From assembly GCA_944350115.1 (NCBI GenBank), contig CALVNZ010000002.1, positions 9,939-73,938 of the forward strand: a stretch of DNA of 64,000 nucleotides. The letters are read 5' to 3'. This document shows positions 11,214 through 53,167 of the stretch, piece after piece (position 1 is the stretch's first letter; each line of letters starts with the position of its first letter). The DNA is from an uncultured Clostridia bacterium (lineage in GTDB: Bacteria; Bacillota; Clostridia; Christensenellales; UBA1242). The notes under the pieces are model-generated. The model made no database searches, was not told the DNA's origin, and saw only the letters and a list, made by a program, of their open reading frames with translations. Both the position numbers and the translations under genes were made by a program.

Positions 11214-11488
11214 TTTACCGGGCACTTGCCTTGACAATTTTACACCAACTGTTTCAAAATTTTCTGGCTCCACCAAAGCTACCTTATGGCACACGCTCGG
11301 CTCCTCTTAATGATGCTCCCGTCAGGGCCTGACATGGTTCAAGGACGACCGTTGCATAAGACCTTGATTTCATCACCAGTGAAATTTTGCACATTTTTGA
11401 CATAAAACAGCCGCAACAAGCGTTCAATCCTGCTGTAGCGGGTTGCAGGTTACAGGGCACCGCTAACTCCCCATCTAGCCCGGCTTTA
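11214..11488 (-). ncRNA. ffs: Signal recognition particle RNA, long Bacillus-type with Alu domain (scRNA)
   Basis: The minus strand reads GCCGGGCUAGAUGGGGAGUUAGCGGUGCCCUGUAACC (Alu domain) and GUCAGGCCCUGACGGGAGCA...GCGUGUGCC...GUAGCU (the helix-8 region, as in the E. coli 4.5S core). The 5' and 3' ends pair (gcccggcttt/ctttaccgggc). A TTGATT-17-TATAAT promoter lies at 11492-11520 on the minus strand. The segment is GC-rich in an AT-rich genome. Confidence 0.88.
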
Positions 11489-24574: not shown

Positions 24575-25540
24575 ATGAAAAAGTCTTTTTCTGCAACGAT
24601 GATTATTATTGGCACTGTGATTGGCTCAGGCTTTGCTAGTGGAAAAGAGGTCGCAGTGTTTTTTTCACGATTTGGTTTAATCTCTTATTTTTTTATTGTT
24701 TTGTCTTTCTTTCTTTTTTTTGGCATTATTTATTTCTTTTTGAGTTTTGGCTCAAAAGCTGTTTTAAGACTGCAATCTTCAAAGCTTTTTTCTTTTTTAT
24801 GTGTTTTGATTTCTTTGATTTTCACTTCTTCGATGTTTGCAGGTGTTGTCAATGTTTTGCCAAGTAATGTTACTGTAAAAGTTTTTGTCATTTTCATTTT
24901 GATTTTAACTTGTGTTGTTGTCATAAAAAAAGGGGCAAAAAGTTTGGCAAGCATCAACAATTTCTTGATTCCAATAACTATCGTTTGTATGCTTGTGGTT
25001 TTGCTTTCTAATGTCGAGTTTGCCAGTCAAGTTAAAATTCATCAAAATGGCTATGCGGGATTGTTTTTTTGTTTTCTTTATGTGGTTTTAAATTTTTCAT
25101 CGTCAAGTGTTGTGATTTCAAAATTAGGTGAAAACTTAACAAAAAAGCAGAAAGCGTGTGTGAGTTTTGTTTCGAGTTTTGTGCTTTCTGCTTTTCTCGT
25201 GTTGACAAATCTTGTTTTGTTGAATCATCCTGAAAGTTTGAATGCCGATATGCCTTTGGTTTTTGTTGCAAGTGGATCGTTAGCTGTTTTAATCAAACTC
25301 GTCATTTTTTCAGGTTGCATTACAACTTTATTTTCGCTTGTTTGGACGACTAAATTGGCGCTTGAAAGATTTGGCTTAAAAATGCGTCAAATTGTCGTTT
25401 TGGCGGTTGTTTTGCCTTTGGCAGTGTCGTTATTTGGGTTTGGCTCAATTGTAAGCTTCCTTTATCCTTTTGCAAGCATAATAGGAGTAGGGCTGTTGTT
25501 TTGTGTGTTCTTTTTGCCTAAGGAAGTCAAATTTTATTAG
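24575..25540 (+). CDS. YkvI-family membrane protein (APC-superfamily-like putative transporter)
   Basis: N-terminus IIIGTVIGSGFASGKEVAVFF is typical of the YkvI family. About 10 TM helices. Confidence 0.7.
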   Translation: MKKSFSATMIIIGTVIGSGFASGKEVAVFFSRFGLISYFFIVLSFFLFFGIIYFFLSFGSKAVLRLQSSKLFSFLCVLISLIFTSSMFAGVVNVLPSNVTVKVFVIFILILTCVVVIKKGAKSLASINNFLIPITIVCMLVVLLSNVEFASQVKIHQNGYAGLFFCFLYVVLNFSSSSVVISKLGENLTKKQKACVSFVSSFVLSAFLVLTNLVLLNHPESLNADMPLVFVASGSLAVLIKLVIFSGCITTLFSLVWTTKLALERFGLKMRQIVVLAVVLPLAVSLFGFGSIVSFLYPFASIIGVGLLFCVFFLPKEVKFY

Positions 25541-26358
25541 CGTTTGTGCCATTTTTCTAATAGGCTGACACCAATGTACATTAAAGCCGCAAGCACACAA
25601 AGCACCACAGTGCTGGTCATTACAAGGTCGATTTTGAAAACTTGACTGCCGTAAACAATCAAATATCCAAGTCCTGCACTTGATGAGAGATATTCGCCCA
25701 TAATTGTTCCAACCCAAGCTAAACCAACATTTATTTTTAAAACTGAAATAAATTCGTCCATTGCGCTGGGGAGAATAAGTTTCCAAAATATTTGAAATTT
25801 GTTTGCGCGCATGGATTTCATAAGTTGAATTTTGTCTGGGTCACAACTTACAAAGGCGTTTAACATTGTTATTGTTGTCATGACAATGCAAATCAGCACG
25901 CACATGACAATTATTGCACTCATTCCAGAGCCAACCCAAAGAATAATTATTGGACCTAAAGCTATTTTTGGAAGGGAATTTAAAACAACTAAATAAGGCT
26001 CAAAAATTCTTCGTAGTTTTTCGCTCCACCATAGTAACACCGCAATTAATGTGCCTCCAATTGTTGCGATTGCAAAACCACATATCGTTTCAAGTAGGGT
26101 GATTCCAATGTGTTTCCAAATCGTTCCATTTGCGATTAGCGAACTCAAAGTATTAAAAATCCTAGACGGGCTGCTCACAAAGAAAGGATCAATAACTTTT
26201 GTTTGTGCAAGCAATTCCCATAGTCCAATAAAAGCGATAAGAATGATTATTTGAAAGGATAGGACAAAGATTTTATCATTTCTTCTTTTACGCAAATATC
26301 TTTCGTGCGCTTTTGAATAAGGCGCACATTTTGGTAGTTTAAGTTTTTTCTTTTTCAT
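25537..26358 (-). CDS. ABC transporter permease (NitT/TauT, SsuC-like family)
   Basis: Six TM helices, with an EAA-like loop (MKSMRANKFQIFWKLILPSAMDEF). The ATG at 26358 overlaps the ATPase stop. Confidence 0.85.
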   Translation of the reverse strand: MKKKKLKLPKCAPYSKAHERYLRKRRNDKIFVLSFQIIILIAFIGLWELLAQTKVIDPFFVSSPSRIFNTLSSLIANGTIWKHIGITLLETICGFAIATIGGTLIAVLLWWSEKLRRIFEPYLVVLNSLPKIALGPIIILWVGSGMSAIIVMCVLICIVMTTITMLNAFVSCDPDKIQLMKSMRANKFQIFWKLILPSAMDEFISVLKINVGLAWVGTIMGEYLSSSAGLGYLIVYGSQVFKIDLVMTSTVVLCVLAALMYIGVSLLEKWHKR

Positions 26359-27112
26359 TTGTAAGTTTTTTCCACACAAAGTCAAAAAGAGCGCCGAAAG
26401 TTTTGTCTTCTCGTTTTTGTAGTGGTGTTTCTCCGTCAAGTTTTAATATTTCAATGTGCTTTACTGTTGCTGGCCTTGACGACAGAATCACAAGTTTGTC
26501 GGACATTGACAAAGCCTCTGAAATGTCGTGCGTCACTAAAATTGCCGTCTTTTTTTCGCTTTTGATGATCTGATAAACATCATCACAAACATTTAGTCTA
26601 GTTTGAAAGTCAAGTGCTGAAAATGGTTCATCTAAAAGCAAAAGTTTTGGTTCTAAAACAAGGGTTCGTATTAATGCAACTCTTTGACGCATGCCACCGC
26701 TAAGTTCTCTTGGTTTACGATTTTGAAAGTCGTAGAGATCGTATTTTTTTAATAATTCTCTGGCAAATTCAAGTTTTTGTTCTTTGTCTTGAAGTTTTTG
26801 CAATTCTAAACCGAGAGTTATATTCTTCCAAATAGTTCGCCATTCAAACAAGTGATCTCGTTGAAACATGTAGCCTATGTGTGGGCTGTTTTTTTTAACT
26901 TCTTCACCTGCTAAATAGATTTTTCCAGAACTAACTGGCAATAAGCCAGCAATGAGAGAAAGTATTGTTGTTTTGCCACAACCACTAGGACCTACAATTG
27001 ATGCAAATTCAAGTTCATCAACTGAAAAATTTAAATTTTGAAGTGCGTGCACTTCTTCATTTTTTGTTTGATAAAAAAAATTCACATTTTGAAAATCTAG
27101 CAGTTTATCCAT
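26339..27112 (-). CDS. ABC transporter ATP-binding protein (NitT/TauT family)
   Basis: Walker A GPSGCGKTT, Q-loop, signature LSGGMRQR, Walker B LLLLDEP, and H-loop VTHD. The ATG at 27112 is preceded by AGAGG. Confidence 0.92.
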   Translation of the reverse strand: MDKLLDFQNVNFFYQTKNEEVHALQNLNFSVDELEFASIVGPSGCGKTTILSLIAGLLPVSSGKIYLAGEEVKKNSPHIGYMFQRDHLFEWRTIWKNITLGLELQKLQDKEQKLEFARELLKKYDLYDFQNRKPRELSGGMRQRVALIRTLVLEPKLLLLDEPFSALDFQTRLNVCDDVYQIIKSEKKTAILVTHDISEALSMSDKLVILSSRPATVKHIEILKLDGETPLQKREDKTFGALFDFVWKKLTNEKEKT

Positions 27113-27180
27113 AAAGACCTCTACATAATCATTGTACTCTCGCTTAAAAATTTTGTGCATGAAAATTTTGGCACCGAACA

Positions 27181-27209
27181 TTGTGCAAGATTTTTTTTAA
27201 GTTTAAAAT
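27181..27209 (+). promoter_or_regulatory. Candidate promoter of the phage-like module
   Basis: TTGTGC (27181-27186), 17-nt spacer, TAAAAT (27204-27209). A second TTGTGCA copy lies at 27153-27159. Confidence 0.35.
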
Positions 27210-27235
27210 GCAGTAAAGCAAACGGGAGGGAGAAG

Positions 27236-27559
27236 TTGAGCGAGCCTAGTGAAGACCAAGTAAAAAAAGCATTAATAAAAAAAGCGGTGGGATATGAGGC
27301 GAAAGAAGAGATTAAAGAATTTATCATTGACGAAAATGGAAAAGAAATTCTTGCAAAAAAAAGAATAACAAAAAAGCATGTGTCGCCAGATCTTGCCGCA
27401 ATGAAATTGTTGCTTGAGAGATATGGTTTAGAGTTTGAAAAATCTCTTGAAAACATGAGCGATGCTGAACTTTTTGAAGAAAAAAACCGCTTGTTGCAAC
27501 TTTTAGAGGAGGAAAGAAAAAATGCAAATCGAAAAATGCAAACATCCGACAAAGTGTGA
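27236..27559 (+). CDS. Terminase small-subunit-like protein fragment (no recognisable HTH)
   Basis: TTG start lies 5 nt after GGGAGGGAG. AVGYEAKEE...KKRITKKHVSPDLAAMKLLLER resembles the conserved C-terminal segment (K..PPD..A..FWLKNR) of many Firmicutes phage TerS proteins. This comes from pattern memory only. Confidence 0.4.
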   Translation: MSEPSEDQVKKALIKKAVGYEAKEEIKEFIIDENGKEILAKKRITKKHVSPDLAAMKLLLERYGLEFEKSLENMSDAELFEEKNRLLQLLEEERKNANRKMQTSDKV

Positions 27560-27743
27560 TTTTGTTGGGTGCAAAAATCTTGCAGATTATCAATTTTCAA
27601 CGAAAGGCATTTTAAAAAGAGAACTTGCTTTTTGTGAATCTTGCTTGCAAGAAATGTATCTTGAAATTTCAAAGATGCAAATTCCAAAACCTGTTGAAGC
27701 ACCATTTAAATTGCCAAAAAGGCTTAAAAAGGAGGAAAAATGA
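27522..27743 (+). CDS. Small Cys-rich (zinc-ribbon-like) phage-module protein
   Basis: GAGGAGG RBS. The 73-aa product has C-x5-C-x4-C ... C-x2-C (CKHPTKCDFVGC...CESC) and a basic tail. Confidence 0.5.
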   Translation: MQIEKCKHPTKCDFVGCKNLADYQFSTKGILKRELAFCESCLQEMYLEISKMQIPKPVEAPFKLPKRLKKEEK

Positions 27744-29608
27744 AAAAAGTGACCAAAGAAGAAGAGGCTATTGTTAAAAATGTGGTTGAAGACTTTAATA
27801 TGCGTTCACAAGCGCGCAAACCTTTTGAAACACAATGGCAAATGAACATGAATTTTTTTATGGGCAATCAATTTTGTAATATTGGATATGGCGGAAATTT
27901 AGAAGATCAGGAAAAACAATTTTTTTGGGAAGAAAGGCAGATCTTCAACCATATTGCACCACTTGTGGAAGTTAGACTGGCAAAACTTGCCCAAGTCAAA
28001 CCTAAGGCGACTGTGCTTCCAGCATCAAATGATGAAAGAGATGTTTACACTGCAAAAGTTTCTAAAAAAATATTAGATTCTATTACAGCTAAATTAAATT
28101 TATCTCAAAAAATTAATGAAGCAATGCAATGGAGTGAAATTTGCGGAACAGCTTTTTATAAAATTTCTTGGAACCCAAAACTTGGGCAAATTGTGGCAAT
28201 GGAAGATGGCACGCCATTAAGAAGCGGAGAGGTTGAAATCACCGTTTGTTCACCATTTGAAATTTATCCTGACAGCCCAACTTGTTCTGACATTGACAAG
28301 TGCCAAAGCATAATTCATGCTCGTGCAGTCAGTGTTAAGCAAATTAAAGACATTTATGGAATTGATATCGCTGGGCAAGACATCAACATCTTTTCATTAA
28401 GTGCGACTAGTGTTGGTTTTGGAGGACTAGGATATTCAAGTTCTGCGCCAAAAATTTGCCAAGGAATCAAAAAAGATAGTGCTCTTGTGATTGAAAGATA
28501 TGAAAAACCAAGTGCTGAACGCGAAAATGGCAGATTGACCATTGTTGTTGGTGACAGACTTTTCTTTGACGGAGATCTTCCTTATGCAGTTGGCAAGGAC
28601 GGAACAAGAGATTTCCCATTTGTCAAACAGACAAGTCTTGCACAAATTGGAAGCTTTTGGGGAAATTGTATTATTGACAGACTTATTCCTATTCAAAGAG
28701 CATACAATGCGGTCAAAAACAGAAAATATGAATTTTTAAACAGACTTACTATGGGTGTTTTAAAGGTCGAAGATGGCTCTATTGATATTGAAAATTTGGA
28801 AGACGAAGGGTTGTGCCCTGGCAAAATTTTGGTTTACAGACAAGGTTCAACTGCTCCACAATTTTTGGATAGCGACAATATTTCAAGCGATTTTGAAAAA
28901 GAAGAAAACATGCTTTTAGATGAGTTTAGAAATGTTAGTGGTGTGAGCGAAGTCCTCGATACAGACTATATTTCAACAAATTTATCAGGCGTTTCTTTGG
29001 AACTTATGCTTGAACAAGATGAACTTAGGTTAAAACCAACAGCAGAAAATGTTAAACAATGTTTAAAGGTAATCAGTCAAATAATTTTAAGACTTTACAA
29101 ACAATTTGCACTTATTCCAAGACTTGCAAGAATAGTTGGAGACAGGGGTGATGTTGAAATGTTTTACTTTAATTCTAATGATATTTCAAGTGACGACATT
29201 GAACTTGAAACTGAAAATGAATTAGGGGAAAGCATTGCAAGCAGGAGACAAATGGTTTTTGATTTATTGAATGCAGGCCTTTTGCAAGACGAAAATGGCA
29301 AACTTAGTGCTAGAATGAAAGTCAAAGTTCTTGAACTTTTAGGTTTGGGCATTTGGGAAAATGCACAGGATCAAAATGAGTTGCATTTAAAAAAGGCTGA
29401 AAACGAAAATCTTGAAATGATGAATGGCAAGGAATCAAAAGTTTTGGAGATTGATGAACATTCTTTGCACATTGACAAACACGTCGCATTTATGCTTGGT
29501 GGAGATTATGAAGAAAAAAGACTTTTAGATCCTGAAATCGAGAATCGATTTTTAAACCATATAAGGCAACATAAAAAATCTTTAAAGGAGGAAAAAATTG
29601 ATGAATGA
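27740..29608 (+). CDS. Phage portal protein
   Basis: 622 aa. N-terminal FETQWQMNMNFFMGNQF and GTAFYKISWNP...GEVEITVCSPFEIYPDS match generic portal patterns. Its position is upstream of scaffold and capsid. AAGGAGG RBS. Confidence 0.8.
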   Translation: MKKVTKEEEAIVKNVVEDFNMRSQARKPFETQWQMNMNFFMGNQFCNIGYGGNLEDQEKQFFWEERQIFNHIAPLVEVRLAKLAQVKPKATVLPASNDERDVYTAKVSKKILDSITAKLNLSQKINEAMQWSEICGTAFYKISWNPKLGQIVAMEDGTPLRSGEVEITVCSPFEIYPDSPTCSDIDKCQSIIHARAVSVKQIKDIYGIDIAGQDINIFSLSATSVGFGGLGYSSSAPKICQGIKKDSALVIERYEKPSAERENGRLTIVVGDRLFFDGDLPYAVGKDGTRDFPFVKQTSLAQIGSFWGNCIIDRLIPIQRAYNAVKNRKYEFLNRLTMGVLKVEDGSIDIENLEDEGLCPGKILVYRQGSTAPQFLDSDNISSDFEKEENMLLDEFRNVSGVSEVLDTDYISTNLSGVSLELMLEQDELRLKPTAENVKQCLKVISQIILRLYKQFALIPRLARIVGDRGDVEMFYFNSNDISSDDIELETENELGESIASRRQMVFDLLNAGLLQDENGKLSARMKVKVLELLGLGIWENAQDQNELHLKKAENENLEMMNGKESKVLEIDEHSLHIDKHVAFMLGGDYEEKRLLDPEIENRFLNHIRQHKKSLKEEKIDE

Positions 29609-30221
29609 GCAAGAAACTTGGGAACAACCACAAGATGAGCAGGCAAATGCCACACATGAGGCGATTGAAGAGAGTGCCGGTAGCGATGAAAGTGGCTCCC
29701 ATGAAAACAAGGGTGAATTTGGCAAATTTAAGTCTGCTGAAGCATTGCTTTCAGCTTACAACTCTTTGCAGGCTGAATTTACTCGAAAAAGCCAACGCCT
29801 TAGTGAAATTGAGAAAGAAAAAACGCAAGCAACAACCACTTTTAGTGAACAGGATGTTGAAAGCGAATTGAATGCGTTCCTTTCAGAGAATAGCGAAGCG
29901 AAGCCTTTTGCTGATGAGCTTAAAGAAATGGCTTTAACGCAACAGGCGAAACCCGAATTTGACAAACTTTTTGCAAGTTTGGCTGTTTCAAAGCTTGCAA
30001 GCGGTCAGTCAAAAAAGGATAATCCAATAATAAAAAAATATGTTTTTCAAGATGAAGAACTAAAAAATTTTGTGATCGAAAATTATATGAAACAACTAAA
30101 CGAAAAGAAACCACCGATTGTCATAAGCAGTGATATAGGAGAGAGAGCGACTGGGCAAACCCCAGCCTCTCCAAAATCACTGGCTGAGGCTAAAAAAATG
30201 GTGGAAGACATGTTTAGTTAA
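29601..30221 (+). CDS. Phage scaffolding protein
   Basis: Acidic N-terminus, a helical FKSAEALLSAYNSLQAEFTRKSQRLSEIEKE segment typical of scaffold proteins, and a location between portal and capsid. Confidence 0.65.
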   Translation: MNEQETWEQPQDEQANATHEAIEESAGSDESGSHENKGEFGKFKSAEALLSAYNSLQAEFTRKSQRLSEIEKEKTQATTTFSEQDVESELNAFLSENSEAKPFADELKEMALTQQAKPEFDKLFASLAVSKLASGQSKKDNPIIKKYVFQDEELKNFVIENYMKQLNEKKPPIVISSDIGERATGQTPASPKSLAEAKKMVEDMFS

Positions 30222-30240
30222 AAATTAGGAGGAAAAAGTA

Positions 30241-31401
30241 ATGGTAACTTTACAAAACGCAGACAACGCGTTAAAAACAGTTTATTTGGGAGTTATTGCA
30301 AACCAACTTAATGTTTCTGCTAATCCTCTTTTGACTCAAATCAAAAGAACGTCAAAAGATGTTTGGGGAAAAGAAATTAGAAAAGCAGCTCCTTACGGAC
30401 TTAATGGTGGTGTTGGAGCAGGTGATGAAATAGGTGCTCTTCCAGGTGCAGCAGGAAACAATTATGTTCAATTTGTTGCTCAATTAAAAAATCTTTATGG
30501 AAAAATTGAAATTTCTGACAAAGCTATCAGAGCTTCTGCAAACAATGCAGGCGCTTTTGTAAATCTTTTGCAAGATGAAATGGAAGGACTTGTTAAAGCA
30601 AGCACATTTAACCTTGGGAGAATGCTTTATGGAGATGGAACTGGTTTGCTTGCTACATGCAGTGGTATTGCTGATGGTGTTATTTCTTGTGATAAAGTGA
30701 ACAATCTTGTTGAAGGAATGATGGTTGACATTCTTGATGGATTAATTCCAATTATGACAAGAGCTAGAATTACTTACGTTGACAGAGAAAACAAACAATT
30801 CTGTGTTGATAAAACGATTGCTTCAATTAATGAAGGAGCTGGCGTTTATGTTCAAGGTTCAAGCAATAAAGAAATCACAGGTCTTGGAGCAATTTTTTCA
30901 GATTCTGAAACTCTTTATGGTTTAAAAAGAGCTGATTATAAATGGTTAAAACCATACAGCAAAAATGTTGGCGGAGAAATCACTGACATTATAGTTCAAT
31001 CTGCTATTGACCATTTGGAAGAGAATGCAGATTCAAAAGTAAACTTTATATCTTGTTCAGCACCAGTTCGCAGAGCTTATCAAGCTTATCTTGCAGCTTA
31101 TAGAACTAACGTTGATGTTATGAATCTTGAAGGCGGATTTAAAGCTATTTCTTACAATGGTATTCCACTTGTAACAGATAGATTTGTTGATCCAGACACA
31201 ATGTACTTATTAAACACAAACGATTTTACTTTGCATGAATTATGCGATTGGAAATGGCTTGAAGGAGAAGGCGGAAGCGTTCTTAAACAGATGTCGGGTT
31301 ATGCATGTTACAACGCAACTTTGGTTAAATATGCAGAACTTATTTGTGACAAACCAAATGGACAAGCAAAAATCAGTGGCATTACAACAACTAACGTTTA
31401 A
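30241..31401 (+). CDS. Phage major capsid protein (probable HK97 fold)
   Basis: 386 aa, Gly/Ala-rich. YGKIEISDKAIRAS...LGRMLYGDGTG and the C-terminal part resemble major capsid families. AGGAGG RBS. A hairpin follows the gene. Confidence 0.8.
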   Translation: MVTLQNADNALKTVYLGVIANQLNVSANPLLTQIKRTSKDVWGKEIRKAAPYGLNGGVGAGDEIGALPGAAGNNYVQFVAQLKNLYGKIEISDKAIRASANNAGAFVNLLQDEMEGLVKASTFNLGRMLYGDGTGLLATCSGIADGVISCDKVNNLVEGMMVDILDGLIPIMTRARITYVDRENKQFCVDKTIASINEGAGVYVQGSSNKEITGLGAIFSDSETLYGLKRADYKWLKPYSKNVGGEITDIIVQSAIDHLEENADSKVNFISCSAPVRRAYQAYLAAYRTNVDVMNLEGGFKAISYNGIPLVTDRFVDPDTMYLLNTNDFTLHELCDWKWLEGEGGSVLKQMSGYACYNATLVKYAELICDKPNGQAKISGITTTNV

Positions 31402-31444
31402 TCTTTGTGATCAAGAGTCAAAATTTCTAAAAAAAGAATTAGAT

Positions 31445-31470
31445 GGGGCGTTTTGCCCCTTCTAAAATTT
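31445..31470 (+). terminator. Weak hairpin/attenuator downstream of capsid gene
   Basis: ggggc-gtttt-gcccc stem-loop followed by a T-rich tract. Such partial terminators are common after phage capsid genes. Confidence 0.35.
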
Positions 31471-31481
31471 TAGGAGAAAAC

Positions 31482-31802
31482 ATGAAAAACCAAATTTTGT
31501 TGGAAAGTGATCCTTTTTACATATGTTCACGCATTAAAGAAATAGATGAAAATTATTTCTTTATTTACAATTTTGATAAAAATAGATTTGAACTTCACAA
31601 CAGTTCTCAAAAAGGGTCAACTTTTTCTCTTGCTATTCCTTTTGATGTGTTAGATGAAAGAACGTTGTTTTTAGCTAAAAAATCTAGAATTGAAAACATG
31701 GAAAAAATCATCAAAGAAATGGATGAAGAAAATTTAAAGCGTGAACAAAAATTAAAAAAGCAAGCTTTCGAGCAAATAAAAGAGGTGATATATGATAGTT
31801 AA
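31482..31802 (+). CDS. Hypothetical phage-module protein (106 aa)
   Basis: AGGAG RBS before the ATG at 31482. No recognisable motif. C-terminal charged helix. Confidence 0.55.
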   Translation: MKNQILLESDPFYICSRIKEIDENYFFIYNFDKNRFELHNSSQKGSTFSLAIPFDVLDERTLFLAKKSRIENMEKIIKEMDEENLKREQKLKKQAFEQIKEVIYDS

Positions 31803-32343
31803 TGACACAATAAAGCTTTGTTGTGATTTTGTCAATCTGCCAGAACTCAAAGATTTAGTAGGGACGGAAAATGGAGACGATATTCAAAAAGCCAAACTCA
31901 ATGCAATGTTAAGATGTTTAAACCTAGCTTACGAAGAAATTTGCACTGAATTTTTGCCTATTTTAAAAAAAGAGGCAATTGTTTCTGAAAACGGTGAATT
32001 TTATTTTTCAAATCTTTCAAAGCCTATTAGTTCAATCGTATCACTAAAAACTCCAGAGGGTAAAAACATAAAATATCAAAATTCTTCTGACCATATCAAT
32101 TTTAACGAAGATTGTGCCATTATTGTTTATTCAGTTTTGCCAGAAGAATTAAAATTTGGTGATAGTGATGATGGTGTGATATCTAATCGGGTTTTGGCAT
32201 ATGGGACAGCTCGTGAGTTTTTTCTTATGCAAGCACTTTCTGATGAAGCATTGATTTATGAAAATCGTTTTAAAGAAAGTTTAGAAAACCTTGTTAGAAA
32301 AAAATCTTTATCAAAACTTCCTGTAAACAAATGGTTGATTTAG
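31792..32343 (+). CDS. Hypothetical phage-module protein (183 aa), head-tail adaptor position
   Basis: Overlaps the upstream ORF by 11 nt. Its size and position parallel the T7 gp11-type adaptor, but no sequence motif was recognised. Confidence 0.5.
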   Translation: MIVNDTIKLCCDFVNLPELKDLVGTENGDDIQKAKLNAMLRCLNLAYEEICTEFLPILKKEAIVSENGEFYFSNLSKPISSIVSLKTPEGKNIKYQNSSDHINFNEDCAIIVYSVLPEELKFGDSDDGVISNRVLAYGTAREFFLMQALSDEALIYENRFKESLENLVRKKSLSKLPVNKWLI

Positions 32344-32351
32344 GAGGGCGT

Positions 32352-33827
32352 ATGTTTAACAAAAAAACCCTTAAAACAAAAGAAACTAAAAAAATTCAAG
32401 TGCGTTTTAGTGATTTTTCAAATTGGGAAAATGTTTCTGATTCAAAAAAAGCAGTGACAGATACAAGACAGTGTTTTAATTTCATTGTAAATCGAGGTGA
32501 CTTGGAAGCGGGGTATGGTTTTAAAAAATTAAAATTACCTATTTCAAACACTGATTTGCAAGATGAAGATTTTAATGTTCAAGCTACAGAAGTTTTGGGA
32601 ATGTGGATGACTCCAATTTTTGAAACGCAATCCGAAGTAGACAAATATTACGTTTTTTATATAGATGAAAACAAAAAAGTGTTCTTTTTCAATATTTTTA
32701 GCAGTGACAAGTTTATGTATGAAGAAGAAATTCAATTTAATGAAATTCCTTGTGCAGCAACCTTCAGAATAAACGGGCTTGACACAATTTTGTTTTCTTC
32801 ACCAAGCGACCAAACAGTTGGTGTCAGCGTTGGAGGAGTGAGAACTTTTGACAATATTCCAAAATTTTTGTCGGGGTGTTGGCATGGCAATTATTTCTTT
32901 TTAGTCACAGTCGGAGACAAAAACAACCTAGTTTATTCAACTGAAACGATTGCGAATTGGAATGATGACAATAAATTTGATGTTGAAATTCCAGATGTGA
33001 GAGGAGGACTTAAATTTGTTGTATCTTTTAATGATGACCTATATATTTTCAGAGACTATGGCATCATTAAACTTTCTCTTTATGGAAGTGGTGAAACGAA
33101 ATTTAATTTGCAAAACATTTATTATTCTTCGGCTTATATTTATCCTTCTTCAATAGCAAAAAATGGTGATTACATAATTTTCACCACACAGGACGGAATT
33201 TACACTTTTGATGGCGCAAATGTAAAAAAAGTTGAGTTGCCAGTGGAAAGCCTTTTAAATGAAACTAGAAATTCAACTATTGCGGCAGCTTGCTTTGACA
33301 ATAAATACTTTTTAGCTTGCAAAATAAATTTTGATGATGAAGAACAAATTGGAATTGAAAGTGGAGATTTTTCAAACAACGCAGTTGTTGTTTATGATTT
33401 AATTGACAAAACGACTTCTGTCATTAGAGGAATTGATGTGCGACAATTTTGTGTTATCAACACTCCTTATTTGCAAAAACTTTGTGCAATTTTTAGAGGA
33501 GAACAAAAGGCGTGCATTGGGGAACTGACAAAAGACGGGACATTTTTTGGTGAGGCATTAAAAAAGGTTTGGAAATCTCCTAAAACTGATTTTGGATATG
33601 CAGAAAATCTAAAAAGAATTATGTCTGTGACGGTTAAGCCACACACTGTTTGTCAAATTGTCCTTGAATCTGAAAATGGTGAAAAAGTGACGATAAACTC
33701 CCAAGATTGCGAAACATCTCAAAGATTTATTGTGAACTTGTTAGGCAAAAGTTTTGCGATATCTTTTATTTCTCAATCAGACCAAGCAATTTCAAACCCT
33801 GAATTTGAAGTCAAGGTTGTTTCATGA
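32352..33827 (+). CDS. Hypothetical phage-module protein (491 aa), putative nozzle/tail-tube-like beta-rich protein
   Basis: AGGAGG RBS. Repetitive beta-strand-like segments (YYVFYIDENKKVFFF, NYFFLVTVGDKNNLVY, DLYIFRDYGIIKL, DYIIFTTQDGIYTF, KYFLACKINF, AVVVYDL) suggest a beta-propeller. There is no Walker motif, so it is not a terminase. Confidence 0.5.
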   Translation: MFNKKTLKTKETKKIQVRFSDFSNWENVSDSKKAVTDTRQCFNFIVNRGDLEAGYGFKKLKLPISNTDLQDEDFNVQATEVLGMWMTPIFETQSEVDKYYVFYIDENKKVFFFNIFSSDKFMYEEEIQFNEIPCAATFRINGLDTILFSSPSDQTVGVSVGGVRTFDNIPKFLSGCWHGNYFFLVTVGDKNNLVYSTETIANWNDDNKFDVEIPDVRGGLKFVVSFNDDLYIFRDYGIIKLSLYGSGETKFNLQNIYYSSAYIYPSSIAKNGDYIIFTTQDGIYTFDGANVKKVELPVESLLNETRNSTIAAACFDNKYFLACKINFDDEEQIGIESGDFSNNAVVVYDLIDKTTSVIRGIDVRQFCVINTPYLQKLCAIFRGEQKACIGELTKDGTFFGEALKKVWKSPKTDFGYAENLKRIMSVTVKPHTVCQIVLESENGEKVTINSQDCETSQRFIVNLLGKSFAISFISQSDQAISNPEFEVKVVS

Positions 33828-33892
33828 TTTTGTTTGATCATAAGCATTATTTAACATTAAATAAAATTTCGCTTAAAGGAGAAAGCAGGGCA

Positions 33893-34120
33893 ATGAGTAA
33901 TTTTATTAAAAACTTAAAAAGTGACAAATCGGATTTGATTGAATATGCAAGCGAAGAAGATGTTGAACTTTTTTCCAAACAGAAAAAAGCTTATGACATC
34001 ACTCTTAATTTTTTAAAGCAGTTTGATCGAGAGGTGGCATTAAGTTTTTTAGCGACAAACATGCAACTTCGGGGAGAGCTTGGAATGTTTTATGATTATT
34101 TGCTGGAAGAGTTAAGTTGA
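33893..34120 (+). CDS. Hypothetical small phage-module protein (75 aa)
   Basis: AAGGAG RBS upstream of the ATG at 33893. Helical and acidic. Confidence 0.45.
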   Translation: MSNFIKNLKSDKSDLIEYASEEDVELFSKQKKAYDITLNFLKQFDREVALSFLATNMQLRGELGMFYDYLLEELS

Positions 34121-34374
34121 TGCAAGTTTGGCAAGATGTTGTCAGTGTCATAATAAGCAACGGCATTTTTGCAGTGCTTTTTGTGATATTGTTTTGTTAT
34201 CAATTAAAAGACAGCAAAAATCGCGAAGAAAAATATCAAAAAACTATTGCAGATTTAACTGATCACCTTGGTGTTATTGATGAAATTAAAGAAGATATAA
34301 AGTATTTAAAAGAAAACATAACGCCCAAAAGGAGGAAAAAAGATGAATCTCAAGAGTCTAGTGAAATCTTATAG
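34120..34374 (+). CDS. BhlA/UviB-family holin-like protein
   Basis: A single N-terminal TM helix is followed by a charged coiled segment. GIFAVLFVILFCYQLKDSKNREEKYQKTI parallels the BhlA/UviB pattern G.FA.LF..LLFY..K.SK.RE.K. Confidence 0.7.
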   Translation: MQVWQDVVSVIISNGIFAVLFVILFCYQLKDSKNREEKYQKTIADLTDHLGVIDEIKEDIKYLKENITPKRRKKDESQESSEIL

Positions 34375-34627
34375 TTTTTGGACTGCACTTGCTGGTGCGC
34401 TTGTTATTCTTGTCAATGCTTTGGGAAATATTTTTGGATTCAAGATTGAAGAAAAATTGATAAGTGACATTGTTATGGCTGTTGCGGGGGTGCTTGTTGC
34501 ATTTGGCATCGTAACTTTGCCAGCGTCAACCAAAGAAAAAACGACAAATTCAAGCGAGCAGACAAATGAAGAGAGCGTAGAAACACAACAAGAAATTTCT
34601 GACGAAAATTCTGATGAGGCAGAATAA
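34343..34627 (+). CDS. Phage holin (phiLC3/Phage_holin_1-like)
   Basis: AAGGAGG RBS. Two TM helices (FWTALAGALVILVNALGNIFG and IVMAVAGVLVAFGIVTLP) and a hydrophilic acidic tail. Confidence 0.6.
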   Translation: MNLKSLVKSYSFWTALAGALVILVNALGNIFGFKIEEKLISDIVMAVAGVLVAFGIVTLPASTKEKTTNSSEQTNEESVETQQEISDENSDEAE

Positions 34628-34629
34628 AA

Positions 34630-34659
34630 AAAGAGGGCATTTAATACCCTCTTTTTTTC
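34630..34659 (+). terminator. Rho-independent terminator closing the phage-like module
   Basis: Stem agaggg (34632-34637) pairs with ccctct (34647-34652), followed by a T7 run. Confidence 0.75.
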
Positions 34660-34669
34660 TATGTTGAGT

Positions 34670-34698
34670 TTGACAAAAACAACTTATTATGTTATAAT
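34670..34698 (+). promoter_or_regulatory. Consensus sigma-A promoter
   Basis: TTGACA (34670-34675), exactly 17 nt, TATAAT (34693-34698). Confidence 0.6.
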
Positions 34699-34718
34699 AA
34701 AACATATGGAGGTTGCAA

Positions 34719-35384
34719 ATGATAGGTGGTGTTATGAAATCGGGTGAAGGAAAGTATTCTTTAGCAAAAGGTCAGCTTGCTTATTTTTTAGATGAAGAAG
34801 AATTAGCAAAAATTCAGTATTTTACAATTGCTGACAAAAATAACATCAGCAGGGCAATTATGAAAGGTGGGAAAGAAGTGGCTTACGGGTTTTCACTTAT
34901 GGGCATTTCAGCTAAAAAGGCAAATTTCGACTCAGAAAATGCTCCTGCTGTTGATGAATTGAGAAAAGCACATCGAGAAAAAGTCGAGCAAGATGTTAAA
35001 AATGGAAATCAAGAGTTTGCTAACTTTATTTATAACGCTAGTTTAGGGTGTTTTTATAAAACACAAAAAAATGGCAAAGTAAAATATTATGATTTAAAAG
35101 GTGATGAAATTAAGGACATACTATTATATTCTATCGGATTAAATTCACTTATTACACAAACACCTTTAATTGTAACCAATGGAATTGCAAAAGAAAGGGC
35201 AAGCAAAAACGATGGGTTTAAAAGTTTATTGCAAGCTTATGATACTTATTTTTTGGCGTGTCATGAAACTTCAAGCAAAGTAGATAATTTAAACTGTGAT
35301 TTATATTTGTTAGGGTTGGAGGAAATTTGGGAAAGCCCAAGAAAATTAGAAAAGCCAGATGAAGAGATTGAATTAACTAAATAA
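34719..35384 (+). CDS. Hypothetical protein (221 aa), monocistronic
   Basis: GGAGG lies 6 nt before the ATG at 34719. It has its own promoter and terminator. No recognisable motif. Confidence 0.6.
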   Translation: MIGGVMKSGEGKYSLAKGQLAYFLDEEELAKIQYFTIADKNNISRAIMKGGKEVAYGFSLMGISAKKANFDSENAPAVDELRKAHREKVEQDVKNGNQEFANFIYNASLGCFYKTQKNGKVKYYDLKGDEIKDILLYSIGLNSLITQTPLIVTNGIAKERASKNDGFKSLLQAYDTYFLACHETSSKVDNLNCDLYLLGLEEIWESPRKLEKPDEEIELTK

Positions 35385-49752: not shown

Positions 49753-50445
49753 ATGGAACACCTAAGAAAGAACGAAGTTGTCCTTTCAGGAAGGATTGCC
49801 ACTAGTCCAACATTTAGTCATGAAGTTGCGGGTGGCGAAAAATTTTATGAATTTATTTTAGATGTAAGACGCTTGTCAGGAACCGTTGACAGTTTGCCAA
49901 TTACAATTAGTGAAAGACTTATGCAAAGTGTGAATTTCACAGATTTTAGTGTTGGCGATATGATTAAATTAAGTGGAGATTTTAGATCATACAATAAAGA
50001 TGTTGAAGGGAAAAGCAAGCTTATATTGTCAGTTTTTTGCAAATTGGTTGAGCCAAAAACAGAAGAAATTGACATAAACCAAATTGATTTAACAGGATAT
50101 GTTTGCAAGTCACCAGAATTTAGGACGACACCACTCAAAAGGCAGATTAAAGATTTGCTTCTTGCAGTGAACAGGCTGAACAAAAAAAGCGACTATATTC
50201 CGATCATTATTTGGGGGAGAAATGCAACTGTCGCAAAAGACTATAAAGTGGGCGATTGCGTCAGCATAAAGGGAAGAATTCAATCTCGCAAATATAACAA
50301 ATTGATTGGTAATGATTTGGAAGAAAGAACAGCTTATGAAGTCAGCGTTCAAGAAGTTTATGATTACATTCCAAAAATTGAAAAACATTTGATTTTTGAC
50401 GAAGAAAAGGCTTATTCCTCTCCATTTAACATTGCAAGAGGATAA
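49753..50445 (+). CDS. Tandem OB-fold, SSB-like protein (hypothetical)
   Basis: Two repeats share the same pattern (NEVVLSGRIATSPTFSHE...FYEFILDVRR and IDLTGYVCKSPEFRTTP...LLLAVNR...IPIIIWG), resembling SSB/PriB-type OB folds. AAGGAG RBS. Confidence 0.5.
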   Translation: MEHLRKNEVVLSGRIATSPTFSHEVAGGEKFYEFILDVRRLSGTVDSLPITISERLMQSVNFTDFSVGDMIKLSGDFRSYNKDVEGKSKLILSVFCKLVEPKTEEIDINQIDLTGYVCKSPEFRTTPLKRQIKDLLLAVNRLNKKSDYIPIIIWGRNATVAKDYKVGDCVSIKGRIQSRKYNKLIGNDLEERTAYEVSVQEVYDYIPKIEKHLIFDEEKAYSSPFNIARG

Positions 50446-50472
50446 AAAAAACCGTTTTTAACGGTTTTTTTT
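50444..50472. terminator. Bidirectional terminator
   Basis: accgt-tttta-acggt hairpin flanked by A8 and T8 runs. Confidence 0.7.
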
Positions 50473-50474
50473 AA

Positions 50475-51980
50475 TTATTTTACAAGTGGGGGAAACATTG
50501 TTTGTGGTATCTCTAAATTTAATAGCTTTAACACGGTTGGAGCAACATTTGCAATAGATGCATTTTTGATTTTTTTCAGTTTTCTAATTTTGTTTGACAC
50601 CAAAATAAATGGCACCTTATTTGTTGTGTGTGAAGCGACGGGAGCGCCAAAGCGATCATACATCACTTCTGCGTTTCCATGGTCAGCCGTTATTATGCAT
50701 TCACCACCAGCCATTAATGTTGCAAGAGCAATGGCGTAAGCTTGCTTGTCAACACATTCAGCGGCTTCTTTTGCAGAATTAAAATTGCCTGTGTGTCCAA
50801 GCATGTCTGTGTTTGAATAGTTTATTAAGATAAAATCATAATTTTTTGATGCTATCGCTTCAATCGCGTCAGTTGTGATTTCCAACGCTTTCATTTTTGG
50901 ATATGGGCTAAAATCAGTTGTTTCTATGCTTTCAATCAATTTTCTATCTTCATTTTTGTAAGGTTTTTCGATTGTTCCGTTAAAAAAGAAAGTCACATGG
51001 GCATATTTTGTGGTTTCAGCGATATGAAATTGTTTTAACCCCGCTTGAGAAATGATTGCAGAAAGATTGTCTTCAACTTTTTCAACAGGGAAGATCACAT
51101 GAACATTTTTTAATTTGACATCGTATTCTTCCATCGATGCAAAGTAAAGATTTTTAAACTTTTTAGTTTTAAATTCCTTAAATTCTGGATCAGTGAACGC
51201 AAAAGATAATTCCTTTGCTCTGTCAGAGCGGAAATTGTAAAAAATGACGGAATCGTTTTCTTTTATAAGTCCATTTTTATCTATTAAAACGGGTTCAATA
51301 AATTCGTCTGTTTTGCCGTCGTGGTAACTGTCTGTGACCGCTTCAACAGGGTTAGTTTTGACTTCACCTTTTCCTGACACTAAAAGATCGTAGGCTTTTT
51401 TTAATCGGTCATATCTTTTTTCGCGATCCATTGCATAAATTCTGCCACAAATGGTGGCTATTTTTGCGTTTGAGCCTTCAACAAATTCAAGCAAATCTTC
51501 AACAAAAAATTGACCATAGGTTGGTTTTGTGTCTCTTCCATCTGTGATGATGTGAATATAAACTTTGCTTAAATCATATTCTTTTGCCATGGATAAAAGT
51601 GCCTGTAAATGCGAAATATGGGAATGCACGCCACCATCTGAAAGCAGTCCAAGAAGATGTAGGGAAGAATTATTCTTTTTTGCGTGCTCCATTGCTTCTT
51701 TTAAAACAGGCATAGAAAAAAATGATCCATCATCTATTGCCTGATTTATTTTTTCTAAATTTTGCAAAATCACTCTGCCAGCGCCCAATGTTAAATGACC
51801 AACTTCCGAATTGCCCATTTGACCTGCTGGCAAACCAACCGCATTTCCACTTGCTAAAAGTTTCGTGTGTGGATATTTTTTTAAAAGTTTTTTTAAGTTT
51901 GGCGTTCCGCAAGCTTTTATAGCATTGCCAAACCTTGATTTATTACAACCAAAACCGTCTAAAACGACCAATGTGACCAT
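50475..51980 (-). CDS. gpmI: 2,3-bisphosphoglycerate-independent phosphoglycerate mutase
   Basis: LVVLDGFG, GNSEVGHLTLGAGR, DGGVHSH and ITADHGN motifs. Confidence 0.95.
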   Translation of the reverse strand: MVTLVVLDGFGCNKSRFGNAIKACGTPNLKKLLKKYPHTKLLASGNAVGLPAGQMGNSEVGHLTLGAGRVILQNLEKINQAIDDGSFFSMPVLKEAMEHAKKNNSSLHLLGLLSDGGVHSHISHLQALLSMAKEYDLSKVYIHIITDGRDTKPTYGQFFVEDLLEFVEGSNAKIATICGRIYAMDREKRYDRLKKAYDLLVSGKGEVKTNPVEAVTDSYHDGKTDEFIEPVLIDKNGLIKENDSVIFYNFRSDRAKELSFAFTDPEFKEFKTKKFKNLYFASMEEYDVKLKNVHVIFPVEKVEDNLSAIISQAGLKQFHIAETTKYAHVTFFFNGTIEKPYKNEDRKLIESIETTDFSPYPKMKALEITTDAIEAIASKNYDFILINYSNTDMLGHTGNFNSAKEAAECVDKQAYAIALATLMAGGECIITADHGNAEVMYDRFGAPVASHTTNKVPFILVSNKIRKLKKIKNASIANVAPTVLKLLNLEIPQTMFPPLVK

Positions 51981-52039
51981 TTCTCACCTCATAAAGTGAG
52001 TGTAACATTAAAATGCTTTAAAAGTCAAATGATTGACTG

Positions 52040-52483
52040 TCATCTCTTGTCGAAGTGTTCGTCAAAAAGGCTGTTGCGATTATCGTTGTTTTGAATAGAA
52101 CGATCAAAATCAAAATTATCGTCATTTTCGCTTGTTTTTTCATGATAACCACTTTCTCGCAATCTCTCTTTTTGTTTTTCTTCATCTTTATTATGACGAG
52201 AACGCTTTTCTTCGCTTGCATCAATATTTGCATTTGCTAGTGCCATTTTTTCTTTTTTAGCTTTTAATTTTTTAAAACCCCAAATATGAATTGAGCCTTT
52301 GTCGAGAAATAATTTTACAACCAAAAACACCGCGCTTGCACCAACAATTATGTAAATCAGTCGTGAAAAAACACTGCCTTGATATCCAAATATTCCTGCA
52401 ACAAAATCATATTGTAACAGCCCAATTAAAAGCCAATTTATGCAACCTGCAATAGTTAATGCGAAGGCAATAAAAGTCAGCAT
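52040..52483 (-). CDS. DUF378-family membrane protein with long charged C-terminal extension
   Basis: The N-terminal roughly 65 aa (IAGCINWLLIGLLQYDFVAGIFG) match the DUF378 two-TM pattern. They are followed by about 80 aa of K/E/D/N-rich tail. Confidence 0.7.
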   Translation of the reverse strand: MLTFIAFALTIAGCINWLLIGLLQYDFVAGIFGYQGSVFSRLIYIIVGASAVFLVVKLFLDKGSIHIWGFKKLKAKKEKMALANANIDASEEKRSRHNKDEEKQKERLRESGYHEKTSENDDNFDFDRSIQNNDNRNSLFDEHFDKR

Positions 52484-52610
52484 AATTTTTTCATCCTCCT
52501 TTTTTTAAATAGTATGAGTTAAAATTAAAACAAAAATTCTTTGTTTTTGATTGACTTTTTTTTGAATTAAGCATATAATACCATTATTGTTGACTTGGAG
52601 GTGATTGACA

Positions 52611-53081
52611 ATGGCTGAAAAATATTTGACACCAGAAGGAGAAAAACAACTTAGAGAAAAACTTGAATACTTGAAGACTGTTAAAAGACCAGAAGTTGTT
52701 AAAAAAATAGGAATCGCTCGTGAATATGGTGACTTGTCAGAAAATGCTGAATATGATGCTGCAAAAGACGAACAAGCGCTTTTAGAAATTCAAATAGCAG
52801 AAATTGAAGATACTTTGCTCAATGCTGTTATCATCAAAAAAAGCAATATCGACACATCAAAAGTAAGTATTGGAACAAAAGTCAAACTTTATGATCTTGA
52901 ATTTGACGAAGAAGTTGAATATAAAATTATTGGTTCTGATGAAAGTGATCCAAAAAATGGGATCATAAGCAATCTTTCACCAGTTGGGTCTGCTTTGCTT
53001 GGGCACAAAGTTGGTGAAACTGTTGATGTTTCAACTCCTAATGGCGAAGTTAAATATAAAATTTTGGCAATCACGGTTTAA
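52611..53081 (+). CDS. greA: Transcription elongation factor GreA
   Basis: LTPEGEKQLREKLEYLKTVKRPEV...AREYGDLSENAEYDAAK. A TTGACT-17-TATAAT promoter lies upstream. Confidence 0.95.
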   Translation: MAEKYLTPEGEKQLREKLEYLKTVKRPEVVKKIGIAREYGDLSENAEYDAAKDEQALLEIQIAEIEDTLLNAVIIKKSNIDTSKVSIGTKVKLYDLEFDEEVEYKIIGSDESDPKNGIISNLSPVGSALLGHKVGETVDVSTPNGEVKYKILAITV

Positions 53082-53167
53082 TAAATTAATTTGTTTTATT
53101 AAGTGATTTTTGTTGCGTTTAAAATCTTATTTTGTTATACTTAAATATACAAAATAGGGTTGAGGTT

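Follow-up and report, generated by a model that had tools for sequence, protein, structure and literature searches.

The stretch of DNA analyzed here, referred to as the window, covers 64,000 nucleotides (nt) of the genome of an uncultured Clostridia bacterium (contig CALVNZ010000002.1 of assembly GCA_944350115.1, positions 9,939-73,938, forward strand). It holds a compact operon of podovirus-type head, neck, and lysis genes, hereafter the head operon, whose outline had been drawn from the sequence alone in an original prediction. Eleven co-directional open reading frames (ORFs) lie on the + strand at positions 27236-34627, as that prediction had it, forming a tightly spaced block of ~7.4 kb. 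Their successive junctions measure -38, -4, -8, +19, +80, -11, +8, +65, -1, and -32 nt, and are compact or overlapping, also as described. Clear ribosome-binding sites (RBSs) of the AGGAGG/GGAG type precede 9 out of 11 starts, for which the earlier statement on RBSs holds; those of the 183-amino acid (aa) protein gene (g183, AGAGGTG) and of the BhlA gene are weaker. The GC content of the operon (0.32-0.37) is that of the rest of the window, in line with the host-like composition noted before.

The first gene (27236..27559, + strand) encodes a 107-aa protein resembling phage small terminases (TerS). It starts at TTG 27236, preceded by GGGAGGGAG, and is a complete protein with the size of its orthologues (91-107 aa), not the fragment for which it had been taken. 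Profile analysis reports a hit with phrog_309 (8.5e-6), a profile matched by 12 out of 13 members of the family (best 1.4e-8); the match covers only some 50 internal residues of phage small terminases (phrog_309 positions 195-243 out of 319). The TerS-like protein has no detectable DNA-binding domain, and a sequence-profile search returned no PDB relative. Its dN/dS ratio, computed here and below pairwise between species by the Nei-Gojobori method, with synonymous sites saturated between carriers, is 0.03-0.32. The second gene (27522..27743, + strand) is an ORF for a zinc-ribbon-like CxxC protein of 73 residues, without family match in Pfam, PHROG, or NCBIfam; it is found in 69 loci, always between the TerS-like and portal genes, with a dN/dS of 0.005-0.15. 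The ensuing portal protein (622 aa; 27740..29608, + strand) is of the P22/SU10 type (PF16510, 1.2e-14; PF23899, 3e-7; phrog_156, 6.9e-34) and is highly constrained (dN/dS 0.008-0.09). An acidic, helical protein of ~206 residues (29598..30221, + strand) is assigned as the putative scaffold by its position between the portal and the major capsid protein (MCP), as in P22; it has no family match in Pfam or PHROG and is conserved in 74 loci (dN/dS 0.08-0.34). The MCP itself (386 aa; 30241..31401, + strand) is of podovirus type (phrog_14242, 3.5e-58; NF033394 capsid_maj_Podo, 4.5e-82; dN/dS 0.03-0.10).

Downstream of the MCP, a small conserved protein (31443..31802, + strand) is encoded where P22 has orf69, between the coat and adaptor genes. 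It comprises 119 residues from the first ATG, and judging from the RBS, a 106-aa form starting at ATG 31482 is more likely. It is kept in 73 loci (dN/dS 0.04-0.23) and returns only sub-threshold matches in Pfam and PHROG. The 183-aa protein (31792..32343, + strand) takes the place in the gene order of the P22 adaptor gp4 (166 aa). Neither P22 gp4 nor the "tubular tail protein" of Jasminevirus matches the family by hhalign, a sequence-profile search found no PDB match, and a single-sequence AlphaFold model is unusable (pLDDT 49); the dN/dS is 0.07-0.19. The following ORF (32331..33827, + strand; likely start ATG 32352, 491 aa; dN/dS 0.04-0.17) is assigned by AlphaFold2 and Foldseek as a tail nozzle or hub with a P22 gp10-like beta-propeller fold. 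Next comes a 98-aa ORF (33824..34120, + strand) that had been counted as a 75-aa gene. The ORF is real (98/75 aa), but it matches PF25588 weakly, and a profile of full-length members (E 5e-8) and the alignment identify it as a remnant, comprising only the C-terminal ~70 residues of a coiled-coil-like DUF7934 protein of 300-340 aa. It evolves faster and under weaker constraint (omega ~0.3), and by this alignment the DUF7934 gene is lost in the lineage of the window. The last two genes encode a BhlA/UviB-family holin-like protein (34117..34374, + strand; PF10960, 3.4e-16; phrog_2429, 1e-13) and a Phage_holin_1-family holin (34343..34627, + strand; PF04531, 2.5e-6, above the gathering score), which are, if anything, less constrained (dN/dS 0.01-0.47) than the structural genes. 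The identities proposed earlier for portal, capsid, BhlA, and holin are borne out by the PF16510, NF033394, PF10960, and PF04531 matches. The operon closes, as announced, with an intrinsic terminator (34628..34660, + strand), a stem-loop followed by a T-run (AAAAAGAGGG-catttaata-CCCTCTTTTTTT; AGAGGG-N9-CCCTC-T7). It was read directly off the sequence, an automatic pattern scan having missed it since its loop measures 9 nt.

At the sequence level, the nozzle protein has no relative in Pfam, PHROGs, or the PDB, nor, by tblastn, among 50,697 phage genomes, and its identity emerged from the search of each ORF by profile and structure, through AlphaFold and Foldseek only. An AlphaFold2 model built on 57 homologues (pLDDT 88.5, pTM 0.89) was compared with the PDB by Foldseek, which reports the tail of Pseudomonas phage Pa223 (9nwi_Y, E 1e-20, TM 0.71), Vibrio phage VP1 (8zkk_O, TM 0.73), P22 gp10 (8eap_D/8u10), Sf6 and, more distantly, T7 gp12; its matches in BFVD carry the name "P22 Gp10 DNA-stabilising". 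From this model, the 491-aa protein is firmly predicted to be a gp10-like podovirus tail nozzle/hub. The order portal, scaffold position, MCP, small ORF, 183-aa protein, and 491-aa protein reproduces that of P22 gp1-gp8-gp5-orf69-gp4 (166 aa)-gp10 (472 aa), and a gp10-type beta-propeller nozzle 3' of a P22-type portal (PF16510), a feature of P22-like short tail machines, is present here. The podovirus order recognized in the original prediction is therefore real, but it had been likened to that of T7, whereas P22 gp1-gp8-gp5-gp4-gp10 and the nozzle fold provide a better fit. The likeness to P22 (NC_002371) extends to the gene order, the P22_portal-family portal, and the gp10 nozzle fold. In contrast, no sequence similarity was found outside the portal, and the needle gp26, the ejection proteins gp7/gp20/gp16, and the tailspike have no counterpart here; unlike P22, the element is not a phage, and replication, lysogeny, and lysin genes are absent.

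The head operon is flanked by housekeeping genes, identified by family scans as an ATP-binding cassette (ABC) importer, rpsT, gpr, racemase, groEL, and ileS. On its 5' side, on the opposite strand, stand an ABC importer ATPase of the SaoA/TauB type (26339..27181, - strand, likely true start ~27112; Pfam ABC_tran, best NCBIfam match SaoA/TauB) and its permease (25537-26439; BPD_transp_1, best NCBIfam match TauC/SaoP). The rpsT gene, the germination protease gene gpr, a racemase gene, and groEL lie on the 3' side. ATPase and permease form the conserved left junction of the operon, being adjacent to it in ~55 loci, but no homologue of the substrate-binding protein (SBP) gene of such an importer occurs in the window or in any short-form locus, as we call the loci that share the gene content of the window. 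Searches by tblastn and profile hidden Markov models (HMMs) found no large terminase (TerL), ArpU-like activator, or other gene of the fuller clusters described below within the 64 kb, except the DUF7934 remnant. Scans of the ORFs and their neighbours with Pfam, PHROG, and NCBIfam identified no integration, replication, or lysogeny gene in the window. There is no tRNA in the window, and flanking direct or att-like repeats do not exceed the chance level. The absence of terL, integrase, and repressor, and of repeats and tRNA, had all been anticipated. Among the flanking genes checked in related loci, including the fuller clusters, no integrase or replication gene was found either.

Homologues of the head operon are numerous, at least 6455 for the MCP in the protein database; the best of these reach 66-79% identity and lie on contigs as long as 368 kb. 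When one representative genome of each GTDB species was scanned, 73 loci emerged, with one copy per genome. The carriers are uncultured Clostridia or "Christensenella/Christensenellales"-labelled metagenome-assembled genomes from the gut of human, rabbit, deer, and mouse. The short form of the operon is present in ~60 species-level genomes; the synteny comparison of the rpsT/ABC locus proposed earlier shows the same ten genes at the same ABC ATPase/permease junction in ~55 loci, and all nine core genes are intact as ORFs in 51 loci. The dN/dS ratios of the structural genes (0.008-0.2) span the range of the flanking ABC genes and groEL. In a neighbour-joining tree of MCP and portal from 147 loci, the loci that are ABC-linked and devoid of TerL and DUF7934 all fall into one clade, which is nested among TerL-bearing forms and has L136/L138, L075/L084, and L039 as nearest relatives. 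The nearest isolated phages, the Arthrobacter Jasminevirus, share only 26-28% identity in MCP, 23% in portal, and 28% in TerL. On these comparative grounds the operon is domesticated; both a decaying remnant and a recent prophage are ruled out because of the synteny of ~55 loci, the low dN/dS, and the 26-28% identity of isolated phages. The view of an old, selectively maintained element is thus strongly supported, and what would have spoken against it is missing: there is no contiguous TerL, no att repeat, no phage MCP closer than 28%, and no frameshift or relaxed selection.

The TerL-bearing relatives, hereafter the full forms, provide the complete gene set, which the reading favoured below takes as the ancestral one. 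Their 5' part comprises an ArpU/RinA-like late activator (phrog_36, 2e-12, with a weak sigma-70 region 4 match), a membrane protein of ~265 residues on the opposite strand, TerL (475-485 aa, Terminase_6N), and optionally a surface protein (760-835 aa) with a signal peptide/transmembrane anchor. The TerS-like, CxxC, portal, scaffold, MCP, small, adaptor-position, and nozzle genes follow, and the 3' part consists of an optional ~400-aa protein, DUF7934 (300-340 aa), BhlA, and holin. TerL lies directly 5' of the head genes in L051, L060, L075, L080, L082, and L084, and it is linked to the portal in 59 out of 62 informative loci among the best 80 metagenome TerL loci. At least 4984 TerL homologues exist; the protein is strongly conserved, with intact Walker and nuclease motifs. 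TerL is absent from the cluster also in the L039/L088/L089 and L059 clades. DUF7934 is full-length in L039, L059, L060, L080, and L082, and is encoded 3' of the nozzle, at the needle/plug position; searched by sequence profile, the PDB yielded no match for it. A metagenomic protein of 824 residues, P0272, is a natural nozzle-DUF7934 fusion, which suggests that the two proteins are in physical contact in full-form particles.

The full forms are also located among housekeeping genes, in many lineages in one slot after gyrB-gyrA-pda-ssb (L082, L195, L187, L105, L107, L112, L123, L159, L169, L176, and L181); in L195 the cluster precedes homologues of the window ORFs 53132 and 54161 (RNase J-like). 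The corresponding gyrA-ssb slot of the window (50445-53132) was considered as a site of element remnants, a candidate that was rejected as it holds gpmI, a small membrane protein, and greA. Single-sequence pattern scans of IMG/VR returned almost no matches. An alignment-based scan returned 47 related contigs, nearly all of them short TerL-bearing full-form fragments, with L088 and L089 showing no TerL; no complete phage was identified among the 47, the flanks of the six longer ones (27-68 kb) not having been examined. A variant cluster (L215:1-6940, L216:12929-15328) exhibits a giant ORF of 6,896 residues upstream on the opposite strand, encodes a 435-aa protein instead of the membrane protein of 265 residues, and has a gene of 799 aa following the nozzle. 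In L082 (10001-11458), TerL does not translate to the catalogued protein and has a stop near its 3' end, maybe a frameshift or a sequencing error.

In addition to the TerL linked to head genes, four lineages (L146, L148, L147, L208) possess a TerL unit devoid of head genes. In the TerL tree they form a clade sister to L141/L142/L136/L138, and the short-form head clade sits at a closely corresponding place in the MCP and portal tree. For each of the four lineages, exact-sequence look-ups yielded longer contigs, which come from many independent samples and reach 331-336 kb. In all of them the order is activator, membrane protein (- strand), TerL, surface protein, and then an orphan SBP gene of the NMT1/SsuA/SaoX type (- strand), beyond which lie housekeeping genes, either rsmD-GDPD-lepA-hemW or an aminoacyl-tRNA synthetase gene. 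Downstream of the unlinked TerL, no portal or MCP occurs within 10 kb (L241/L242, L246, L250) or within 7.7 kb (L248/L249). The unlinked TerL is intact (75-76% aa identity, with saturated dS). These units have orthologous SBPs (55-76% identity), whose divergence parallels that of TerL, at 75% and 55% versus 75% and 66%. Two conserved junctions are therefore found, ATPase|TerS-like in the head half and surface-protein|SBP in the TerL half. A single inversion with breakpoints at surface-protein|TerS-like and ATPase|SBP would yield both of them.

The surface-protein gene that follows TerL in these units (L241:3702-6020, L249:12998-15283, L246:11605-14112, L250:11489-13897) encodes 760-835 residues with a signal peptide and a C-terminal membrane anchor, and evolves very fast, at ~40% identity compared with 75% for TerL. 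A number of assemblies end right behind TerL, as would fit a gene that is hypervariable between strains. Two features were observed just 5' of the activator: L248:568-9638 carries a serine recombinase and an island of about ten small genes, absent from the near-identical L249, and L244:1-700, of the L146 lineage, contains a tRNA-like sequence (- strand) and a small CxxC ORF before the activator promoter. Every contig of the L146 lineage breaks within ~1 kb of this point. Some candidates for the missing half were discarded. L165 is an isolated TerL of an unrelated full-form clade, and the pairs of TerL and head genes thought to share one contig (P0184/P0254 and P0129/P0064) are on different contigs. 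L135 was rejected as a split locus, as it differs from L136/L138 by a deletion at the strain level: its sequence shares 94-96% identity with theirs as far as the surface-protein gene extends, past which L135 runs into tilS and other housekeeping genes, where L136/L138 have the head operon. By this alignment, L135 underwent a recent deletion or rearrangement in the breakpoint region of the ancient split. No close relative of the unlinked TerL was found in IMG/VR, and the GC match between TerL-unit and head-unit loci is too weak to link the halves.

A second bond between the halves is their promoter. In the window, it covers 27169..27215 (+ strand) and consists of a TGGCAC box (27169-27174), a -35 TTGTGC (27181-27186), a 17-nt spacer, a -10 TAAAAT (27204-27209), and TGCAGTA (27209-27215). 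The pattern T[GT]GCA[GC]T-N5-TTGA..-N17-TATAAT precedes the first gene of 42 short-form loci, frequently accompanied by another TGGCA/TGCAG box right behind the -10, and is otherwise rare (39 unassigned matches in 3.3 Mb). Among the unlinked TerL units, L241 and L249 have the same motif 5' of their activator gene, and L246 and L250 have a TGACAC variant of it there. In the full forms L136, L138, and L080 it stands before the TerS-like gene, past TerL or the surface protein, and it is absent 5' of TerL. Its presence before the TerS-like gene in full forms indicates that the head operon was its own transcription unit before the split. From the conservation of the motif, both halves probably carry a common operator for one regulator. 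The TGGCAC-N..-TTG box was also considered as a sigma-54 promoter; this was rejected because its spacing exceeds the required one by a base and the TTG is the start of a good sigma-A pair, TTGAAA-17-TATAAT.

Taken together, we favour, with a probability of about 0.6, the reading that the block of the window is the head-neck-lysis half of a two-locus, vertically inherited, podovirus-type system of the viriform kind, resembling gene transfer agents (GTAs). Of the options in the original prediction (satellite, GTA-like particle, remnant kept for its holins), it was the GTA-like one that fits best. By the definition used for GTAs and viriforms (PMC9662315, PMC12946183), such elements are recognized by caudovirus-derived structural and packaging genes residing in the chromosome without genes for autonomy, and by vertical inheritance at a fixed locus under purifying selection, both of which are found here. 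The definition further calls for a working large terminase from the same genome, for particles filled with quasi-random pieces of host DNA too small for the whole cluster, and for transfer of this DNA to recipient cells, all of which are proposed for the present element; for the packaging, the single indirect hint is the report on Christensenellaceae cited below. One rearrangement would have severed the ancestral cluster 3' of the surface-protein gene and 5' of the TerS-like gene and, in the same event, a Sao/Ssu/Tau-type ABC importer operon, leaving the head half beside the transporter ATPase and permease, and the activator-TerL half beside the SBP gene at a second locus. Both halves would have kept or acquired the common promoter architecture, and one factor could switch both on together. 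On induction, portal, scaffold, and MCP would build procapsids, which the trans-encoded TerL and the TerS-like protein without DNA-binding domain would fill non-specifically with host DNA. The portal would then be closed by the 183-aa protein and the gp10-like nozzle, and BhlA and holin would release the particles. Retention under selection of a TerS-like protein without detectable DNA-binding domain favours such a packaging role. The absence of a large terminase, as stated originally, thus probably describes the locus of the window and not the genome, because related clusters have TerL and sister lineages carry TerL units at a second locus.

Several points weigh against this interpretation. 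The window and the 10-kb flanks of all short-form loci are free of TerL, and we infer the co-residence of both halves in one genome. TerL-unit lineages number 4 versus ~60 head-unit lineages among the best 80-120 matches, which may be a sampling effect, and TerL-only loci can also arise by deletion, L135 and L165 being examples of TerL without head. The 183-aa protein is a candidate head-to-tail adaptor by position alone. No endolysin, receptor-binding protein (RBP), or fibre was identified in the head half or the TerL half. With these missing and with DUF7934 reduced to a remnant, the particles may be incapable of keeping or delivering DNA, unless the missing parts come from other loci. Particles, DNA packaging, and delivery are proposals, the element being known here from its genes.

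If TerL were truly lost from these genomes, the operon could be a terminase-free exaptation, yielding DNA-free capsid-portal-nozzle particles or serving another host function, for example as particles that are filled with protein or act as decoys and that the two holins release; in that case, the TerL-only units would come from other genomes. This would be the more surprising outcome, and we regard it as improbable, though worth keeping in view. It accommodates directly the lack of TerL in the window and within 10 kb of ~60 short-form loci, the loss of the gene at the needle position, and the fact that the L039/L088/L089 and L059 clades also lost TerL from their clusters; the head operon also has its own sigma-A-like promoter, with no dependence on a neighbouring ArpU-like activator. 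However, portal, TerS-like protein, and nozzle have no obvious use when no DNA is packaged, yet they are among the most constrained genes, and the head-less TerL clade, sister-positioned and under selection, carries the complementary ABC half and the same promoter.

Capsid-forming satellites such as the capsid-forming phage-inducible chromosomal islands (cf-PICIs) exist, and the local lack of TerL, fibres, and endolysin would suit a hijacker that makes its own heads and borrows these components from an infecting or resident helper phage. The original prediction listed this option, which we consider quite unlikely: no integrase, excisionase, replication gene, att repeat, or tRNA target is found, and the fixed junction is inherited vertically over ~60 species in one clade, with one copy per genome. 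Moreover, an element without excision or replication has no preferential packaging of itself, and the nearest isolated phages are so remote in MCP that no helper is evident. The last option then listed, a remnant retained only for its holins, or simply a decaying prophage, is less probable still. The faster evolution of the 98-aa gene remnant, the absence of TerL, activator, and DUF7934, and the tie between BhlA/UviB-type proteins and bacteriocin release in other clostridia (PHROG annotation) can be cited for it, but the nine core ORFs are intact in 51 loci, and the dN/dS of portal, MCP, and nozzle (0.008-0.17) is housekeeping-like and at least as low as that of the holins. Saturated synonymous sites between carriers also make the operon too old for 7 kb of ORFs to have survived neutrally. 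Finally, that an ordinary larger prophage was cut by the assembly or the window edge is suggested by the phage-like gene content alone and is hardly credible, given the housekeeping genes on both flanks, in the window and on relatives' contigs of up to 368 kb, and a composition equal to that of the host.

The closest known system is FpGTA of Faecalibacterium prausnitzii (Nat Commun 2026), a podovirus-like GTA-like element encoded by two operons 125 kb apart (PMC12946183). It produces tail-less-looking capsids of 40 nm containing 8.4-8.9 kb of DNA, and was presented by its authors as the first podovirus-like GTA-like element (PMC12946183). A TerS without obvious DNA-binding domain was described for FpGTA and cited for other GTAs, and GTA-like packaging of ~4-6-kb fragments was reported in Christensenellaceae, the gene cluster not being identified for those taxa (PMC12946183). 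Like the family described here, FpGTA is chromosomal, near-ubiquitous in its host genus, podovirus-derived, and hosted by gut Clostridia. Both comprise TerL, portal, a scaffold-position gene, MCP, and a TerS or TerS-like protein devoid of an obvious DNA-binding domain, and lack replication and integration genes; FpGTA has an adaptor, for which the 183-aa protein is the positional candidate here. They differ in the capsid, the FpGTA MCP being named N4-gp56 family in the proteomics table versus NF033394 capsid_maj_Podo here, as compared by description. In FpGTA, the putative TerS is encoded before TerL, which is directly followed by the portal, and a Prp-like gene separates portal from MCP. Its second operon encodes tail fibre, RBP, holin, and endolysin, whereas in the present family the holins have remained beside the head genes, with activator and TerL at the second locus. 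FpGTA particles, proteome, and packaged DNA were established by experiment, unlike the present element, which is known from genes. With capsid family (by name) and gene order both different, the element does not belong to the FpGTA family, and the family described here is a candidate for a second short-tailed GTA-like system, non-homologous to FpGTA in capsid family.

As is generally known, the RcGTA-type elements of Alphaproteobacteria also derive from a domesticated head-packaging cluster, are vertically inherited, use dispersed loci and a non-specific TerS, and are released by lysis (overviews in PMC12946183 and PMC9662315). Unlike the short-tailed, P22-like element described here, they resemble siphoviruses in their long tails and have a head module of the HK97 type that includes a protease; their sequences are unrelated to it, and their regulation by the host (CtrA/GafA) is well studied. 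The Jasminevirus phages (Arthrobacter phages Brad, Adat, and Jasmine), the closest isolated phages by sequence, share the order TerL...portal-scaffold-MCP but are autonomous lytic phages of Actinobacteria with a 45-kb genome, only remotely similar and without any match for the nozzle. PBSX and PBSX-like elements of Bacillus, in general knowledge, are likewise phage-derived residents of Firmicutes chromosomes that package host DNA and lyse the producer; in contrast to the present element, they have a contractile tail, a single locus of 28 kb, their own repressor, and tailocin action. As for PICIs and cf-PICIs, the latter resemble the head operon in being a compact head module without tail fibres; they are generally known to carry integrase, regulation, replication genes, and their own terminase, and to move horizontally. 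None of these features was found here, where the locus is fixed, restricted to one clade, and devoid of integrase, att, and replication genes. No earlier description of this family was found in the literature beyond the FpGTA paper and general work on GTAs.

The family is very widespread, as judged from the numbers of capsid and terminase homologues given above, occurring in gut assemblies at conserved chromosomal slots, and in one large clade it is apparently split into two co-regulated loci by a rearrangement that is still legible in the broken ABC operon. To our knowledge, very few GTA-like systems are known outside Alphaproteobacteria. If the favoured two-locus reading is true, the family offers a concrete gene set to be tested as the source of capsid-mediated DNA mobilisation in an abundant and mostly uncultured gut order, and podoviruses were domesticated to GTA-like elements more than once in Clostridia. 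The family would also provide a natural series of dismantling and redistribution, from the full cluster to the loss of TerL from the locus and then of the needle gene. Prophage callers will see the head half or a lone terminase only, misclassifying both.

Outside the operon, a perfect sigma-70 promoter (TTGACA-17-TATAAT with an upstream TG; 34670-34698) precedes a 223-aa ORF (within 34670-35384) located between the operon terminator and rpsT. This ORF has no family match, is confined to the closest subclade of the window, and evolves fast (27-36% identity among close relatives, dN/dS 0.2-0.5). Further upstream, at 11218-11483 on the - strand, lies a large bacterial signal recognition particle RNA (RF01854, 171 bits), the sole Rfam match above the gathering score in the window.

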